Virus record (IMG/VR): IMGVR_UViG_3300033149_003492
Coordinates: 1 to 43,893 of that record
Strand: one strand, 5' to 3'
Origin: a virus
Lineage: Duplodnaviria; Caudoviricetes
Length of the DNA stretch: 43,893 bases
A program made the translations under genes and the position numbers. The notes under the pieces are model-generated. The model saw nothing but the letters and a program-made list of their open reading frames with translations. It made no database searches and was not told where the DNA came from. This document shows, piece after piece, positions 3,101 through 37,432 of the stretch; within the stretch, counting starts at the first letter, position 1; every line of letters begins with the position of its first letter.

Positions 3101-3414
3101 AGTTCGGCCAAGAGATCGGGGCCACGAATGGTCAGGATTCCGGTATGGTCTGCCCCAGTTTCGCCACGTATAGATTCTATGATTCCGGTCTTGCCGACCT
3201 GGGTACGAGTGCCATTTATCATAGCGAAACATTTGACGTATCGCTTTTCCTCGATAAGCTCTTTGCGTGAATCAGCCCAAGCCATCTCAAAGCTGAACTC
3301 ACCCTCCTTATCCAGGCGAGTTGCGCTCTTCCAATTCATAACCTGATAGATTGGACCGGAACCCAGCTTGGTTCCAAGCGGGGATTCTACCTGTATTTCA
3401 ATGTCTGGGTTCAT
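1..3414 (-). CDS. Large tail tip/fibre protein, N-terminal part (continues across the junction to 41865; ~1776 aa total)
   Basis: Absent from the ORF track because it runs off the edge. The ATG at 3414 overlaps the Dit stop (ATGA) and reads MNPDIEIQVESPLGTKLGSG... The frame includes DHGSLTGLGDDDHTQY, two AEGTASSFARSDH repeats and a CBM-like NLLSNGGFET segment, and ends GIKSTS in frame with the 41865..43853 ORF. Confidence 0.88.
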   Translation of the reverse strand, partial: MNPDIEIQVESPLGTKLGSGPIYQVMNWKSATRLDKEGEFSFEMAWADSRKELIEEKRYVKCFAMINGTRTQVGKTGIIESIRGETGADHTGILTIRGPDLLAELNDILIDELNLLTTSTTTADSVQYFDGTASSYLDMSNAFDGNTSTTASIPADDEDLLYVGGDNEFDYVTYTFGSHTISESDRGAGISAKYYNGSDWMSATLYRDGTRDDYQTSFSQDGEVRWERQQDWAKTTVNGVNKYWLQFQFSEDYTNDIPIAEVDITQEQPTATALATIFALSDVTDLGWALDTDYYTATENTVFLKLKEVTVLGALRAIAEQTGEHFRLGDGREVQWLQDDQTVAGIRAVNNVDPVDAEGNPNIALIINLALELQSHELVGRIYPTGGGIGGQRVDLSQCDYDVPGTDYTGYTLDRDNNYLEKDSVVAAYGRTPMRAKYWPHVISPNASGARDVNASNALFDLAYQYLKRHYAEQRTLTLSLAKLESALAVGNLLPVSYYERVDDAIVMDGSTVNYWVLEREDIIAGDGTYTTNVTVATVDAWPTTEYDLMRENIEMTMAIHRTDGPMDADNLSIQTREVVTKSYDHGSLTGLGDDDHTQYGHLGQNETISGSWTFNTNVSLGAGVTVDGMDPSAVKAASFVTMSAEASLSGETSASALAGTGIEWSSSTYRIASSAAGDGLIGGGGSALAVGTPGTLTPVTTNTTTADSHTHAATCAAAGTITPDANAAEGTASSFARSDHVHEITCATPVSVDLGANAEGTASSFARSDHKHDLSESITPTWTGKHVFRSTTTPQVEIGYDAAAYMSISQTDGGNVTIATTSDGSGDVVLAPAGNAQLNPTGNNVLPTTAYDINLGSMQKPFLSLHAAELWVQTLIAQETVATIGGRIVVAPTTYLTRDAAYGDTTIYVKHNEIANGDRIWLEAHGKVEFMAATSDATASTNLLSNGGFETAGAGDPDIWADWSEAAIDGTLANETTNVHSGSDACKITSGAGLLTRIEQSATVVPGKTYKLSFWTRGEGSYAGRFDLNDVSNGTKIYRRNSTQVPGTSYAQVERYFTAPPGCTEVKVELFGPGTSAQTCYYDDVFIGLAEYSYTVTRNLDGTGANNWYAGDAVVNTGTTDDGFIDIYSVHGIKSTS

Positions 3415-4235
3415 TTCCAGGCATCCTTATAGCTAAAAGTCACCGAGGCACCAGTTCCCCCACCACTACGAGTGACCTTTACGAGATTGGAGACTCCGCT
3501 TGGAGCCAACCTAAACCATTCTGTAGATCGATGCGTGTCGGTTACCGAAAGCGCATCCCAAACATCGCTGCCATCCTTGGTCACTGATTTAGCTCCCACA
3601 TCTATCGTGACTGTTTCGCCAACAGCGATACTAGATGCGTAATGCAAATGGCAGGTGTGGCCAGGCACATCGAGCAGGAGATAGACTTCGGTGAGTCCCG
3701 AAGTAGCATCGGGGGCAATATCTATCGTCATCTTACGCACAATACCGTTGCCAGAATGTGGCAAAGTATGAGTGCTTTCAATGGAAGTCAGATTGAAACT
3801 CTCGTTGTGGCTATCTCCCTCCCAAACACGGGCCCAGGTCTCCCAGGTCATTGTGACAGGCAAACCATATAGCTCTCGTGGTGTTTTGGGGCCACTGACA
3901 ACAGAAAGGCACCGGGCCGTCAAGGATTGAGTTGTGCTACTAGTGCCGTCTGGCGTTCGAATAAGCGTCCCTCTGCGACCCTTCATGGCTGCTAGACTAT
4001 CGTAAGTATTACGTACTCCCCCTGCCGTGGCAGCCGTTATGAGCCGCTCCACAGTAATGAACCGCGGCTCCATAACCGATTCCTGCGACCCCAGGGAGTC
4101 CAAGGCATCCCCACGAGGCAAGTCCAGCAAACCGCTCAGGGCCTCACCCTCGTCCATCGAATCGCGGGGTTGCGCCGTTGGCAAAGTTACATCTAAATCT
4201 GTGCCGGAAGTGAAGCGCGTTACCCAATAAGCCAT
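3411..4235 (-). CDS. Distal tail (Dit-like) protein
   Basis: Lies immediately after the tape measure gene. Its C-terminus WFRLAPSG..N......VTFSYKDAW is typical of siphophage Dit. Confidence 0.7.
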   Translation of the reverse strand: MAYWVTRFTSGTDLDVTLPTAQPRDSMDEGEALSGLLDLPRGDALDSLGSQESVMEPRFITVERLITAATAGGVRNTYDSLAAMKGRRGTLIRTPDGTSSTTQSLTARCLSVVSGPKTPRELYGLPVTMTWETWARVWEGDSHNESFNLTSIESTHTLPHSGNGIVRKMTIDIAPDATSGLTEVYLLLDVPGHTCHLHYASSIAVGETVTIDVGAKSVTKDGSDVWDALSVTDTHRSTEWFRLAPSGVSNLVKVTRSGGGTGASVTFSYKDAWK

Positions 4236-5996: not shown

Positions 5997-6241
5997 GGTT
6001 CCGATTGCTCCCCTCCCATCAGGGCTCCCAAGGCAGCCACAAGTTCATTGACGCTCATTCTCAAGATCAACCGATATGCCTCTTCCCGGTTCTGCGGTTT
6101 TTCTACAAATCTCAAAAGAAACTGGGCTAGTTGTTCTGCTGATTTTGCATCTTTCACTTTCTGTAGGTCGGGGACGGAAATCAGGATTTCCAGGAACCCC
6201 GGCGTATCTGCGTCTATTGCCCGGAACACCAAATCGCCCAT
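5969..6241 (-). CDS. Tail assembly chaperone (G)
   Basis: Small ORF between the major tail and tape measure genes, ending ..NPT.. Confidence 0.75.
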   Translation of the reverse strand: MGDLVFRAIDADTPGFLEILISVPDLQKVKDAKSAEQLAQFLLRFVEKPQNREEAYRLILRMSVNELVAALGALMGGEQSEPNPTQAKTT

Positions 6242-6243
6242 AT

Positions 6244-7230
6244 CTACAGCGAGCTCCTTTCATTCACTATCGTCGTGTCAAAGAAGAGGTTCGAGGTGTC
6301 ATCATGCACGATCCTGGCATTGATGGTCCGTACGTTGTTCCCATCCTGATCGGTAATGGCCTCTACGTTCTCATATATCCCTGCCATGTCGATGCGCAAA
6401 GTCTTGGAATCATAGGTAGTCCCTGCTGTATTCAGGGCCGTGCCCTCCCATTCCAATCGGAAAAGACGGGTGTTGCCCTGGCGAAAGTGCTCTATCTCCG
6501 TGGTCGCAGTTGAATCGTGCTCGAAGGTGAGTTGCAGCGTCGGCGCAGCACCCTTCTGTACTAGAGTGGAAAAATAGAGTTCGCCATCGGCAGCGTGAAT
6601 GCCCTCCTGTCCTGTAGGGACTTCCAGGCGTACCCCCAGCAAGGTATTGCTCTTCAAGTTCGTGCCTACTGTGTTTGCGTCGATATAGAGCTTGCCTTTG
6701 CTGAAGGGAATCTCCTCTACAGATAACAGACTCAACGCAGAGGTAAAAGTCCCTGTTGCCACCTGCCGTCCTCGCCATCGAGCACCGACATTCAGAGGCC
6801 CCCCAGCTTCTCCGCTTAGGGTGAAACTCTCCACATAGCAATAGGTCATTTGCTCTTCTTGCTGATTGTCCCCAGCCTCGATAGTCAAAGTATTGGGCGT
6901 GTGTATGCTGCTGGTGGCTGCACGATACCTGTAGAGATAGCCCGATCCCTCGGTTGTTCCCCCAGTATCAGCCTCCAACGCACACGATAGGATAACCGGC
7001 AATTCCTCAAAGGTCGCCGGGGTCTCGGCGAACTCGATACTACCCCCAAGTTTGGCGGTAAATGACCTATTCTTCGGGGAGAGGTATCCCACGGTCTCGT
7101 CGGGAAACACCTCTTCTCGTTCGTCGGCTATCTGCCCCAACCCCCGCCATTTCTGCGTCGCGTTTACTTCCGTGCCCGCCGTACTCTCGAAGCCATACTG
7201 AATCCGACTCAGTAGCCTTGCTCCTGCCAC
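6244..7230 (-). CDS. Major tail (tube) protein
   Basis: 328 aa with IQYGFESTAGT N-terminus and TLTIEAGD, placed before the chaperone and tape measure genes. Confidence 0.82.
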   Translation of the reverse strand: MAGARLLSRIQYGFESTAGTEVNATQKWRGLGQIADEREEVFPDETVGYLSPKNRSFTAKLGGSIEFAETPATFEELPVILSCALEADTGGTTEGSGYLYRYRAATSSIHTPNTLTIEAGDNQQEEQMTYCYVESFTLSGEAGGPLNVGARWRGRQVATGTFTSALSLLSVEEIPFSKGKLYIDANTVGTNLKSNTLLGVRLEVPTGQEGIHAADGELYFSTLVQKGAAPTLQLTFEHDSTATTEIEHFRQGNTRLFRLEWEGTALNTAGTTYDSKTLRIDMAGIYENVEAITDQDGNNVRTINARIVHDDTSNLFFDTTIVNERSSL

Positions 7231-17277: not shown

Positions 17278-17389
17278 GAAACAGGAGTGATCTTGTCCTG
17301 TTTCACAGGCAACCGGCCCCCAGATTACCCAGGAAACCGGACAAACTTTGTCCTGTTTAGGTAGAAACAGGAGTGAAACTGTCCTGTTT
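17278..17389. repeat. Three copies of a 26-bp palindromic element GAAAC(A/C)GGA-N9-TCCTGTTT
   Basis: Copies at 17278-17303, 17333-17358 and 17364-17389, plus a partial half-site near 17408-17415. Confidence 0.88.
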
Positions 17390-17452: not shown

Positions 17453-17481
17453 ACTATAGCAGGTTTCTTGCGTCTTGTCAA
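17453..17481 (-). promoter_or_regulatory. sigma70-type promoter facing the late operon
   Basis: TTGACA-17 nt-TATAGT with extended -10 TG. The palindrome ATACCCC-GTA-GGGGTAT (17432-17448) sits at the predicted start site. Confidence 0.75.
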
Positions 17482-21545: not shown

Positions 21546-22190
21546 TCACGGCTCCTGTTGGGGGGCAACCATGCCCGCTCGTTCCGGGACATAGTAGCCA
21601 CGGCGGGGCATGGTGAGCAGGTAGCGTGGGTGGGTAGGGTCAGGCTCTATGGTCCTACGGATATTCCAGACGTGAGCCCGCACCAGGGCTGAGGTGCCGA
21701 GGCCCAGGGTATAGCCCCAGACCTCTTTGAGGATAGTGCTGGACAGGAGGGGGTTAGGGCTTTCCAGCATGAGGTGGCGGAGGAGGCAGGTTTGGACTGG
21801 TGTTAGGTGGTACTGGCCCTCGGCGGTGGTGACGGTTCCGGTAGCTGGGTGGAGGGTGAGGAGTCCGACGGTGAGGGGGTCTTTACCGACGAGGCGTTGT
21901 TGGGCGTCGGCATCGAGTAGGGAGCCGACTTTGAGGACTTTGTAGGCTTCTTCGGAGTTGCGGACAACAGCAGCCTGGCCGCGCCAAGTGTCGTGCCAGG
22001 CGTGTTGAGCTGGGGTCAGCCTGCCGCCATCGGACTTGACCTCCAAGAGGTAGTTCATTCCCCGGAAGCCACAGAGGAGATCAGGGCACCCGTGGCCGAC
22101 GGGATGGAGAAGAGTAACTGAGACACCGGCTGCTCGGAGGTCGCGCACAATTTCCGCCTGATTTTCATCGACACGAGAAGCATAGCGCAT
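21546..22190 (-). CDS. VRR-NUC-type PD-(D/E)XK nuclease fused to an OmpR/PhoB winged-helix DNA-binding domain
   Basis: N-terminal G.PDLL...LLEVK..GRLTPAQ. C-terminal HLTP...LL..L...ILKEVWGY..LVRAHVWNIRRTIEPDP..PRYLLT..RGY. Confidence 0.85.
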   Translation of the reverse strand: MRYASRVDENQAEIVRDLRAAGVSVTLLHPVGHGCPDLLCGFRGMNYLLEVKSDGGRLTPAQHAWHDTWRGQAAVVRNSEEAYKVLKVGSLLDADAQQRLVGKDPLTVGLLTLHPATGTVTTAEGQYHLTPVQTCLLRHLMLESPNPLLSSTILKEVWGYTLGLGTSALVRAHVWNIRRTIEPDPTHPRYLLTMPRRGYYVPERAGMVAPQQEP

Positions 22191-35238: not shown

Positions 35239-35441
35239 TCCTCCCTCCTCTCTCCGGGCCAAGCGTAGTCCACTGCCCAACCTAGCTGCTCCTGGCTGGC
35301 CTCACTACGCCGCACGACGCCGCACCGACGGCCAGAGCCTCTCTTCTTGTTGTGGTAGACGATGTGACACTCGCCAGTCTCATTCGCCAGGCGGCGAGCC
35401 TGCCGAATCGCGGCCCTCAGACTCAGAAACTGTTCCCCCAT
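35232..35441 (-). CDS. Hypothetical basic protein, first gene of the replication operon
   Basis: SD GGGGAGGG before ATG 35441. Confidence 0.6.
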   Translation of the reverse strand: MGEQFLSLRAAIRQARRLANETGECHIVYHNKKRGSGRRCGVVRRSEASQEQLGWAVDYAWPGERREER

Positions 35442-35652
35442 TGTCGCCCTCCCCGTTTGCTAGTCCCGGTGACTTTCCTGTCAGTGCGCTCTCCGGGCAT
35501 AGCAAGGCGCCCCTTATCAAGTTTCGCCGTCATGTCACTGACTAGCTGGGGACGTGAGTCCGCTTGATAAGGGGCGCTTTGCCCAGAATATCCTATTCTG
35601 TTAGACGGCGAATAAAAGCAAATCGCCCCCAAAGCTGGCCAGTGACACTCTC

Positions 35653-35681
35653 ACTATAGCAGCTTTCCCCCAGGATGTCAA
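35653..35681 (-). promoter_or_regulatory. sigma70-type promoter of the replication operon
   Basis: TTGACA-17 nt-TATAGT with extended -10. It shares TGCTATAGTG with the promoter at 17453-17481. Confidence 0.8.
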
Positions 35682-35710
35682 TGGCTTTCTGAACGAATCT
35701 GAAAAAGCCG

Positions 35711-35737
35711 TTAGCACTCTCTGGTTGAGAGTGCTAA
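35711..35737. promoter_or_regulatory. CIRCE element (HrcA operator)
   Basis: TTAGCACTC-TCTGGTTGA-GAGTGCTAA matches the consensus TTAGCACTC-N9-GAGTGCTAA at 18/18 positions, and it is intergenic. Confidence 0.85.
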
Positions 35738-35746
35738 CTCATGGAC

Positions 35747-35793
35747 AGAAAAGCAACCGCCCTCCAGCGGGCCGGACGCTAGAGAGCGGTCAC
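35747..35793 (-). terminator. Intrinsic terminator at the end of the late operon/ncRNA
   Basis: GUGACCGCUCUCUAGCG-7 nt loop-CGCUGGAGGGCGGUUGC followed by UUUUCU. Confidence 0.7.
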
Positions 35794-35814
35794 TCAGAGG
35801 AGAGACAGATGATA

Positions 35815-36050
35815 GCTGAGGGAGCTAGGCCAGGCACTAACTCCCTCTTAGCAGGAACCTTGCGGTTCCGCGCTCCGCACCCGAAGGAGCGAAGGAGGCT
35901 TACGGGGGTCAGTCTCCTGGGCCGACCCCCAGCGTGAGCCAATTCCCAGGAAACTGACTCACTGTGCAGTGGCTCTGCTTAGTCCTGTGTTCACAAAGCT
36001 ACGCCCAGCGGCAAAACCCTCAGTGGGTCCCGGGCCTGGGCACTGCACCT
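35815..36050 (-). ncRNA. Candidate structured non-coding RNA of unknown class
   Basis: Consecutive stems with G-U pairs on the minus strand, a GCAA tetraloop, a cUUCGg motif, and two hairpins with complementary loops UCCUGGG/CCCAGGA. Confidence 0.65.
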
Positions 36051-36084
36051 GAATTGGGTGCGATTGATCCCAGATTGGGTACAG

Positions 36085-36345
36085 TCACCCACCATTCAAT
36101 GCGCGGCCTGCGTCGTAGACCTCCATACTGCCCAGTGCTAGGAAAAGCACTGTCCAGATACGCTCAAACCAGGCTGCAAAAGCAGGATTCAGTGCCGCTG
36201 CCTCGTTCGCCGACAAGAGCACGGCAGCCACCAGGAACGCAGCGACCTGGGCCCACCTACTAGGCAATCCGACTAGTTTCAGCGCATCTACAATACGTTT
36301 CACAGCTAGAGCACCGGCAACGCCAAAGATCACAAACTCCTCCAT
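36085..36345 (-). CDS. Putative holin
   Basis: 86 aa with 2-3 transmembrane segments, last gene of the late operon. Confidence 0.7.
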   Translation of the reverse strand: MEEFVIFGVAGALAVKRIVDALKLVGLPSRWAQVAAFLVAAVLLSANEAAALNPAFAAWFERIWTVLFLALGSMEVYDAGRALNGG

Positions 36346-36612
36346 TTATCCCTCCTTCTCGAAGAGAAACTTGTAGGCCGGGACGGTGCGAACTATCGCA
36401 TCCCGGCACATCTGTGGAACGCGCTTGCAGTCTAGGACACCCGCATTGAAAGCACGGTTTAGTATATTCGACATATGGGTTTGTGACAAACCAGCCCACT
36501 CACTCCATTGCCGCGTGGTGTAGTATCCCTCTGGTATACCATCTCCTTCTTTCCCAGAGACCAGTGCCAACAAGTCGTCCAGTGTGAACTCGCTTGGCAT
36601 CTCAATCCGCAT
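36346..36612 (-). CDS. Small HTH-like protein
   Basis: PEGYYTTRQWSEWAGLSQTH pattern. Confidence 0.6.
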   Translation of the reverse strand: MRIEMPSEFTLDDLLALVSGKEGDGIPEGYYTTRQWSEWAGLSQTHMSNILNRAFNAGVLDCKRVPQMCRDAIVRTVPAYKFLFEKEG

Positions 36613-37432
36613 GAACCACCTCCTCTATGTGGGGTAATGGAATGGTGTATAACCGTGGCTTCACTAATATGTCCTTAGTATCCCACTCGATGACTATATA
36701 GCCAATGTGGGGGAGCGTGACGATGCTACTCTTGAAAGCATAGGCGGTGCGCAGTTGCCAGGCCGGAATGGTATAAGCCTGCAAGTCAGGGGCAACAAAG
36801 ACCCCAGCACAGCGATGCCGGTGCGCGCGCACAAAGAGCTTTGTTCTCAGCCCCTCGGCCCCATACCACCGAGCTTCCTCAGACCGCTTCATCAGCATGT
36901 CCCGTAGCAGGGTAGTCACCTCGTACCACGAAACTCGTGTAGCCCCTAAGTGGTGCGATAGGTTCACCACCGGCTCTGAGCCTCCCGGCAACCGCAGGTT
37001 TATCTCCCACCAGCCCCGTTGCTTGGTGGCCGGGTCTTTCTCGGCCTCTAGCATCTCGGACAGCAGACCAAGAGCCTCGCTTGCTTTCCCCTCATGCCAG
37101 GGTGTGCCCTTGACCATGTAGAATCGTTTGGTACATTCGCGCCAGGGCCTTAATAGCTGATAAGCTGCTAGAGCCTGAATGTCGGTGCGATTGGTGACTA
37201 GCTGTCCATCTCGGATGCTGGTGCCCTGCACCGCGTCCCCCAGGAGCGTTATCACATCCGGTTTCAGTCGTCGCACTCGACGGCTTGCGTCCTTCCAGCA
37301 ATCGAGCAGGAACCGTTGGGCCTTGCTCAGGTTATAGTAACCCCCGTCCGGCAAAGGGACTTTGGGAGGCCAAAGGGCCACCGTACTGCCGACATGTAGG
37401 TCGGCGATAGCTACTATTCTGAATGGACGCAT
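36602..37432 (-). CDS. Calcineurin-like metallophosphoesterase
   Basis: IADLHVG, LGDAVQG, KGT.WH, HH and RAHRH motifs. Confidence 0.85.
   Translation of the reverse strand: MRPFRIVAIADLHVGSTVALWPPKVPLPDGGYYNLSKAQRFLLDCWKDASRRVRRLKPDVITLLGDAVQGTSIRDGQLVTNRTDIQALAAYQLLRPWRECTKRFYMVKGTPWHEGKASEALGLLSEMLEAEKDPATKQRGWWEINLRLPGGSEPVVNLSHHLGATRVSWYEVTTLLRDMLMKRSEEARWYGAEGLRTKLFVRAHRHRCAGVFVAPDLQAYTIPAWQLRTAYAFKSSIVTLPHIGYIVIEWDTKDILVKPRLYTIPLPHIEEVVHAD

Follow-up and report, generated by a model that had tools for sequence, protein, structure and literature searches.

The post-holin spacer and its surroundings

The window (the whole stretch of DNA analysed here, 43,893 nt) is an entire 43.9-kb virus record with direct terminal repeats, and its minus strand carries nearly all of the genes. 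The genome encodes a large terminase, a portal, a tail tube, a tape measure, a helicase and an SSB; no tyrosine integrase was found in it. Protein relatives of the lysin-like gene and of the holin are named from Anaerolineae MAGs, and for this reason the host is probably a member of the Chloroflexota and the virus a probable Anaerolineae phage.

A folded spacer sits between the holin gene (36345–36085) and a strong early promoter (35681–35653). The relatives of the holin protein were 60–94% identical to it, a more distant one being named from an Anaerolineae MAG. A gene for a calcineurin-like metallophosphoesterase (36602–37432) lies between the lysin-like gene and the holin; used as a query, it returned no related locus. 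The element itself spans 36087–35745, about 340 non-coding bases with a modular arrangement, and exceeds the ∼240 nt described in an earlier note made from the sequence alone. All the helices listed in that note were present where it had placed them. The features of the region, and the module that it shares with a related phage locus (L122, see below), are as follows:

36461–36489, minus strand: Sigma70-like promoter TTGTCA-17-TATACT upstream of the holin (10/12; one of four genome sites scoring ≥10/12)
36085–36345, minus strand: holin-like gene, 86 aa, the last gene before the element (PHROG 1299 holin, E 6e-4)
36042–36085, minus strand: h0, an 8-bp helix directly after the holin stop (36085–36078 with 36049–36042), rival of P1; from folding
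35964–36048, minus strand: P1, 8 bp (36048–36041 with 35971–35964), closing a three-way junction; from folding, not kept in L122
35970–36042, minus strand: module M1, made up of P2, a hairpin in two parts, and hairpin P3; homologue at L122 1748–1822
35979–35992, minus strand: conserved P3 loop GAACAnnGGACUAA, 14 nt; candidate protein or tertiary contact
35934–35962, minus strand: h1, an 11-bp hairpin with loop UCCUGGG; from folding
35904–35930, minus strand: h2, a 9-bp hairpin with loop CCCAGGAGA; from folding
35958–35945 with 35921–35908, minus strand: alternative 14-bp helix with one G·U pair, which excludes h1 and h2; from folding
35891–35871, minus strand: CGCUCC/GGAGCG stem with UUCG; from folding
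35871–35898, minus strand: two CUCCUU anti-Shine-Dalgarno-like words overlapping the UUCG stem; from a word count
35854–35869, minus strand: GGAACC-GCAA-GGUUCC, a 6-bp hairpin with a GNRA (GCAA) loop; from folding
35818–35847, minus strand: h5, an 11-bp hairpin (35847–35837 with 35828–35818) with loop UGCCUGGC, the second CCUGG loop
35745–35822, minus strand: module M2, an unpaired CU-rich linker plus a 19-bp hairpin with a pyrimidine tail; from folding and a covariance model match
35711–35737, no strand assigned: perfect CIRCE (HrcA operator), adjacent to and outside the RNA; 9-bp inverted repeat, 9-bp spacer, 0 mismatches to the consensus
35653–35681, minus strand: strong early promoter TTGACA-17-TG-TATAGT, 11/12; from the promoter search

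The promoter at 36461–36489 could yield a holin-plus-RNA transcript of ∼700 nt. The promoter search detected neither a dedicated promoter between the holin and the RNA nor an antisense promoter on the plus strand opposite the element. The post-holin spacer contained no credible ORF: on reading, the ORFs of ≥20 aa in the spacer and in L122 had nothing in common, and none encoded a short hydrophobic peptide. A type I toxin-antitoxin or small-ORF locus was rejected, there being no conserved short hydrophobic ORF in or opposite the RNA. The earlier note had ended the element in a terminator. The likely terminator is the 19-bp hairpin of M2 (35795–35751, with five G·U pairs), which would then mark the 3′ end of the RNA, whereas the next hairpin (35738–35710) is the CIRCE.

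The consensus used for the CIRCE was that of PMC1676014, and none of 100 shuffles contained any match to it at up to three mismatches. The -35 of the strong early promoter follows 30 bp downstream of the operator. A CIRCE was found in none of the 140 loci examined, and the literature search returned no study of a phage CIRCE. An HTH_3 repressor was present in three of three related records and absent from that of the window; in L139 and L144 a repressor/cro-like pair occupies the corresponding place. As judged from these gene contents, the heat-shock repressor of the host may take the place of one encoded by the phage. A TTCAGA direct repeat with a 10-bp period (35704–35689, minus strand) shortly precedes the early -35, and a protein with VRR-NUC and Trans_reg_C (OmpR-type winged helix) domains is encoded at 21546–22190; binding of this protein to the repeat is possible.

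The leader of the early promoter (35648–35459, minus strand) appeared to be a second structured RNA (z −3.99). In it, a ∼23-bp helix (35648–35624 with 35554–35532) is the first to form; as the transcript grows, a 20-bp helix (35582–35563 with 35521–35502) is predicted to displace it, and the freed strand can pair with 35486–35480 and 35465–35459, near the first ribosome-binding site. Modelled in this way, the leader looks like a kinetic strand-displacement switch. It had no homologue among the related loci compared. Another strong promoter (11/12) is found at 17481 on the minus strand, in front of the ORF that precedes the large terminase gene. The leader of this promoter (17481–17260) folded at z −4.09, contains three ACAGGAC-headed palindromes (at 17387, 17356 and 17301), repeats the h1 word GTTTCCTGGG at 17338, and is followed by an A/C-rich stretch (17220–16960); the region is a possible operator or packaging region. 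Pairing of the h2 loop with this late-promoter leader (17339–17327, a 13–15-nt duplex) was discarded as not outstanding genome-wide.

Folding of the element and its complementary loops

The folding energy of the element, which the earlier note had proposed to compare with that of shuffled sequences, stood well apart from them (minus strand, z −3.77; 0 of 200 shuffles as good). After correction for GC content, the 240-nt target had a residual of −4.0 sd, below those of all 182 windows of 240 nt tiled over the genome (best −3.24). Over 36050–35745 the minus strand reached −154.1 kcal/mol with 17 G·U pairs, and the plus strand −131.2 kcal/mol with five. Inverted repeats fold on both strands, and the plus strand also folded well (z −2.99), so the bias toward the minus strand is moderate. 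Selection at the RNA level, argued for in the same note, is supported by this asymmetry together with the covariation of M1 with a relative described below.

The pairing of the 5′ end was predicted to depend on where the RNA begins. When the 33 nt after the holin stop were included, h0 won at 37 °C (P(P1) 0.02), and P1 formed in the untrimmed RNA only at high temperature; P1 was formed (P about 1.0) only if the RNA started near 36052. The 19-bp terminator hairpin was present in every full-length fold. Both kissing ‘loops’ partly self-paired in the nested folding model.

The loops of h1 and h2 are complementary over seven of seven nucleotides (p about 3e-4 per loop pair), which as a duplex corresponds to −11.9 kcal/mol, and a 14-bp helix with at most one G·U pair appeared in three of 400 dinucleotide shuffles. 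The two-hairpin state (−34.8 kcal/mol) and the 14-bp state (−32.9 kcal/mol) are within 2 kcal/mol of each other, the probability of the latter increasing from 0.06 at 37 °C to 0.44 at 65 °C. When h2 was compared by hand with the reverse complement of h1, 19 of 27 positions were identical, 15 of 18 in the loop plus 3′ arm. The differences between the stems comprise two double changes, two repairs, and one change of A-U to G·U; the repairs affect positions that are G·U in h1 and that inverted copying would have turned into mismatches. As a result, each copy can still form its stem on the same strand, and the 14-bp helix between the copies is left intact. This pattern suggests an inverted duplication that was followed by compensated refolding on one strand under selection, although inverted duplication by itself already makes complementary loops. 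The loop pair was found in none of the six related post-holin spacers, and a strict pattern for the 14-bp helix had no match across IMG/VR. In the kissing-loop proposal of the earlier note, the 7-nt complementarity and the 14-bp helix stood, with internal support from compensatory differences between the copies and from balanced energies; comparison gave the pair no support, as it was absent from all six relatives.

Only 3 nt join h1 and h2, so that an intramolecular 7-bp kiss would be strained and pairing between molecules would be favoured. Inverted-copy hairpins whose loops nucleate a longer helix are known from ColE1 RNAI/RNAII, R1 CopA/CopT and HIV-1 DIS; here, in contrast, both partners are in one strand, those same 3 nt apart. 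CAGG or CCUG occurs in four of the six longer loops of the element. The h5 loop can form 5 bp with the h2 loop, and CAGGA in the P3 loop could make a second complementary pair with CCUGG in the h5 loop.

Post-holin spacers of related phages

Searches with the holin and the lysin gathered relatives with at least six distinct readable post-holin spacers. Those compared were L001 (the same DNA as L123, L125 and L136), L122, L124, L139, L140 and L144. L138, which ends before its post-holin spacer, and L143 were left out; the contig with the 94% identical holin (P0001) lay outside the relatives compared, and a GTDB match (L126) was a false positive in a transporter gene. All six relatives carry a folded post-holin spacer with GC-rich hairpins, about 95–630 nt long. 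Shuffle tests on three of these gave z −4.2 for L001 (240 nt), −4.5 for L122 (630 nt) and −2.6 for L124. None of the six contained a full-length homologue of the element. Because a spacer of about 95 nt suffices in L144, the shortest case, the long form is not essential. Two kinds of post-holin RNA stood out:

L139 6551–6670, L140 7338–7438, L144 6078–6172: element of two hairpins that follows a holin of a different family; it has a bulged U and a CU-rich linker
L122 1213–1846: nested non-coding RNA, 630 nt; no Rfam match

Window positions 36042–35970, corresponding to M1, aligned with L122 1748–1822, at the same position and on the same strand. The SW score of 44 was reached by none of 1000 dinucleotide shuffles and none of 120 control loci, these being unrelated loci that matched a loose loop-pair pattern in IMG/VR and had no BLAST similarity. 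A single-sequence covariance model returned M1 in L122 as its best non-self match in 88.6 kb (23 bits, E about 0.001). The two M1 sequences are 65% identical (48/74), near the conservation of the holin genes (66% at the nucleotide level). All 19 pairs of the three helices are standard in both phages, with five double and four single changes; controls in which the partner was slid gave 32–57% pairing and at most one double change, and 25 of 500 column shuffles reached the score, which is about the floor for two sequences. The P3 loop was identical at 12 of 14 positions, compared with 24 of 38 stem columns, and a loop more conserved than its stems fits a contact site. An exact pattern of the loop GAACAnnGGACUAA matched one of 144 loci, that of L122. 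Six other parts of the window tested against L122 did not align. M1 is thus the best evidence, from two sequences, for a selected RNA structure. The earlier note had looked to relatives for covariation, above all in the loop-loop pair: M1 provided it (19/19 pairs, five double changes, two sequences), while the loop-loop pair was absent.

The two-hairpin element common to L139, L140 and L144 is about 95–120 nt long, and 11 of its 30 predicted pairs have double changes, in part an effect of the alignment. For a covariance model built from these three, the best two matches outside the training set were window 35822–35747 (20.0 bits), which corresponds to M2, and the post-holin spacer of L001 (18.6 bits); 80 control loci (96 kb) gave at most 11.3 bits. 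L122 (10.3 bits) and L124 (7.3 bits) were within the control range, and a filtered search did not recover the window and L001 matches of the unfiltered one; for both reasons M2 is probably, not certainly, a 3′ end characteristic of the family. Models R1 (from L139/L140/L144) and R2, run over five whole records, added nothing.

The RNA of L122 is closed by long-range helices (1277–1288 with 1722–1733, 12 bp; 1253–1260 with 1827–1834). M1 is common to this RNA and the window; its 18-nt 3′ end recurs in L001, and a CAACC-loop hairpin in L139. The L122 RNA is a better target for study than the window element. A pattern for the 16-mer at the L001/L122 3′ end matched 11 loci, 10 of them unrelated on reading. 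The 240-nt post-holin RNA of L001 (3261–3500) has a possible 9-bp pseudoknot (3375–3383 with 3439–3447) and a CUCCUU in a hairpin loop. Putative homing endonuclease ORFs were seen inside the lysis cassettes of L122 (274–861, HNH-like) and L140 (about 6177–6890, repeat-rich).

Novelty and possible role of the RNA

Rfam 15, whose families include ROOL, GOLLD, OLE, raiA, manA, pRNA, ribozymes and riboswitches, gave no match in the window at the gathering score; over 35300–36300 the best match had E 0.52, far below gathering, and L122, L123 and L124 gave none at E ≤1. The novelty proposed in the earlier note was borne out to the extent that no known family was matched. ARAGORN predicted no tRNA or tmRNA gene in the window or in six related loci and, on this and the Rfam result, the possibilities of a group I or II intron, an RNase P RNA, a tmRNA and a riboswitch were rejected. 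A retron, DGR or DRT ncRNA was rejected since the phage’s own record has no reverse transcriptase (PF00078, 0 matches); a CsrA sponge seems unlikely, two GGA words in loops being too few sites. No match was obtained by blastn of the region against GenBank phages and plasmids, by blastn of the L122 RNA against GenBank phages, or by tblastn of the lysin and holin against GenBank phages. No description of the element was found in the literature; the supplements of Fremin et al. 2023 (PMC10690425) were covered only partly, by keyword, and may hold a match. The element is a real and new structured RNA motif in which one module covaries and the kissing pair is putative.

The phage-borne GOLLD, ROOL and manA RNAs are reported to oligomerise by intermolecular kissing loops (PMC12286853; 10.64898/2026.07.01.735769; PMC12990946). 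The element resembles ROOL and GOLLD (PMC12286853) in being phage-encoded, non-coding and multi-domain, with kissing loops and a conserved plus a variable part, and the 630-nt RNA of L122 is within their size range. It differs in that the window region of the element gave no such Rfam match at E ≤10 (L122, L123 and L124 none at E ≤1), in lacking a tRNA island, in the length of the window form (about 300–340 nt), and in its probable Chloroflexota host; moreover, its oligomers are only predicted. The manA RNA of cyanophages and Photobacterium is likewise short and has two potential loop-loop pairs, which are described as intermolecular and as differing between variants (10.64898/2026.07.01.735769). 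However, manA is a 5′ leader, whereas the window element lies at a 3′ end after a holin and has no Rfam match.

The best explanation, to which we assign a probability of roughly 0.36, is that the 3′ end of the lysis transcript gives rise to a stable RNA, which oligomerises via h1/h2 and displays the M1 loop. The lysis operon would thus finish in a non-coding RNA cassette, likely co-transcribed with the holin; transcription would start at the 36489 promoter or at the late one (17481) and likely end at the 19-bp hairpin. Trimming of the 5′ end near 36052 would let P1 form, and an RNA of about 300 nt would likely persist as a stable species. The complementary loops would then pair between molecules to give dimers or small oligomers, with the P3 loop (CAGGA)/h5 loop (CCUGG) pair offering further contacts. 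Such oligomers would present the conserved loop to a partner, our working guess being a sponge or scaffold for a host protein late in infection. In favour of this are the nested RNA of L122, which is far larger than a terminator needs, and the presence in L122 of an M1 homologue at the same position and on the same strand when other window parts do not align. Against it, M1 comes from two sequences, there is no dedicated promoter, and P1 is not formed in the untrimmed transcript; the oligomer step has no covariation behind it because the kissing pair is absent from all six related spacers.

A close rival, nearly as likely, is an ornate cis-acting 3′ end: the tandem hairpins would serve the lysis mRNA as terminator and stabiliser and would also insulate the early promoter. 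The kiss would then have arisen incidentally, through a local inverted duplication, and M1 would be what is left of a larger ancestral RNA. The location of the element, with the last lysis gene on one side and the early promoter on the other, agrees with this possibility, as do the three relatives with only the two-hairpin element of about 95–120 nt, the match of M2 to that element and the kissing pair not being conserved. What exceeds the needs of termination is a covarying M1 with its conserved loop, the 630-nt nested RNA and the compensated refolding of h2. There is a bolder extension of the oligomer reading, which we consider doubtful: Anaerolineae phages would keep a dedicated post-holin ncRNA slot (95 to 630 nt) whose modules are shuffled in the manner of protein domains, the window’s loop pair, made by inverted duplication, would build a protein-free oligomer or cage, and the GAACAnnGGACUAA loop, shown many times, would trap a host factor late in infection.

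It is rather unlikely that the element is a 3′-derived antisense sRNA whose exposed CU-rich words pair with Shine-Dalgarno sequences and damp the translation of the holin or of early genes. Unpaired CUCCUU words between hairpins are a feature of RNAIII, RsaE/RoxS and cuckoo RNA, which the element shares; for the element, however, no specific target or Rfam match was found. CTCCTT occurs eight times on the whole minus strand, two of them in the element, where the CU-rich seed is exposed (unpaired probability 0.57–0.81). It is also present, mostly unpaired, in three of five related spacers tested (L001, L139 and L140), with CUCCUC or CCUCC in the others, and the linker is conserved in L139/L140/L144. 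Yet terminators carry pyrimidine tracts too, and no long specific target appeared among the top 20 genome-wide duplexes. Pairing in cis with the holin Shine-Dalgarno was rejected: the cognate holin-spacer pair was the best in only two of six cases, and the window Shine-Dalgarno pairs better with foreign spacers.

Slightly less probable still is an intramolecular two-state, possibly thermal, switch from the h1/h2 kiss to the 14-bp helix that alters downstream folding or termination. The near balance of the two states, its shift with temperature and the heat-shock operator 170 bp away speak for it, but the nested model omits the kissing energy, the states are not conserved, and no expression platform overlaps h1/h2, the terminator lying 110 nt downstream and forming regardless. 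A DNA-level feature, i.e. REP/BIME-like paired palindromes or protein sites, is improbable. REP doublets are inverted copies, as are h1 and h2, and ACAGGAC occurs six times on the minus strand, four of them behind the late promoter and one in the P3 loop; nevertheless, the G·U-rich, strand-biased stems, the UUCG and GNRA loops and the compensatory changes point to RNA, the L122 loop lacks ACAGGAC, the element is present in a single copy, and the genome has neither a reverse transcriptase nor a tyrosine integrase. The least credible proposal is a packaging RNA like that of phi29 ringing the portal: of the analogy drawn in the earlier note, only the idea of two complementary loops linking molecules into oligomers survives, since phage type and packaging genes differ (large terminase, portal, tail tube, tape measure), Rfam gave no match, the 7-bp loop pair here extends to a 14-bp helix, and the RNA, including that pair, is not conserved among relatives.

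If the element is only an ornate terminator, its significance is modest. The RNA motif is new and comes from a poorly studied host group. ROOL and GOLLD are large phage RNAs that build protein-free cages. Here the RNAs of a single genomic slot form a graded series, two-hairpin elements standing at one end and the 630-nt nested RNA at the other; they include a module covarying in two phages and a seemingly newly made kissing pair. If the bolder extension is true, this would be an RNA-only assembly caught early in its evolution, which would be new.
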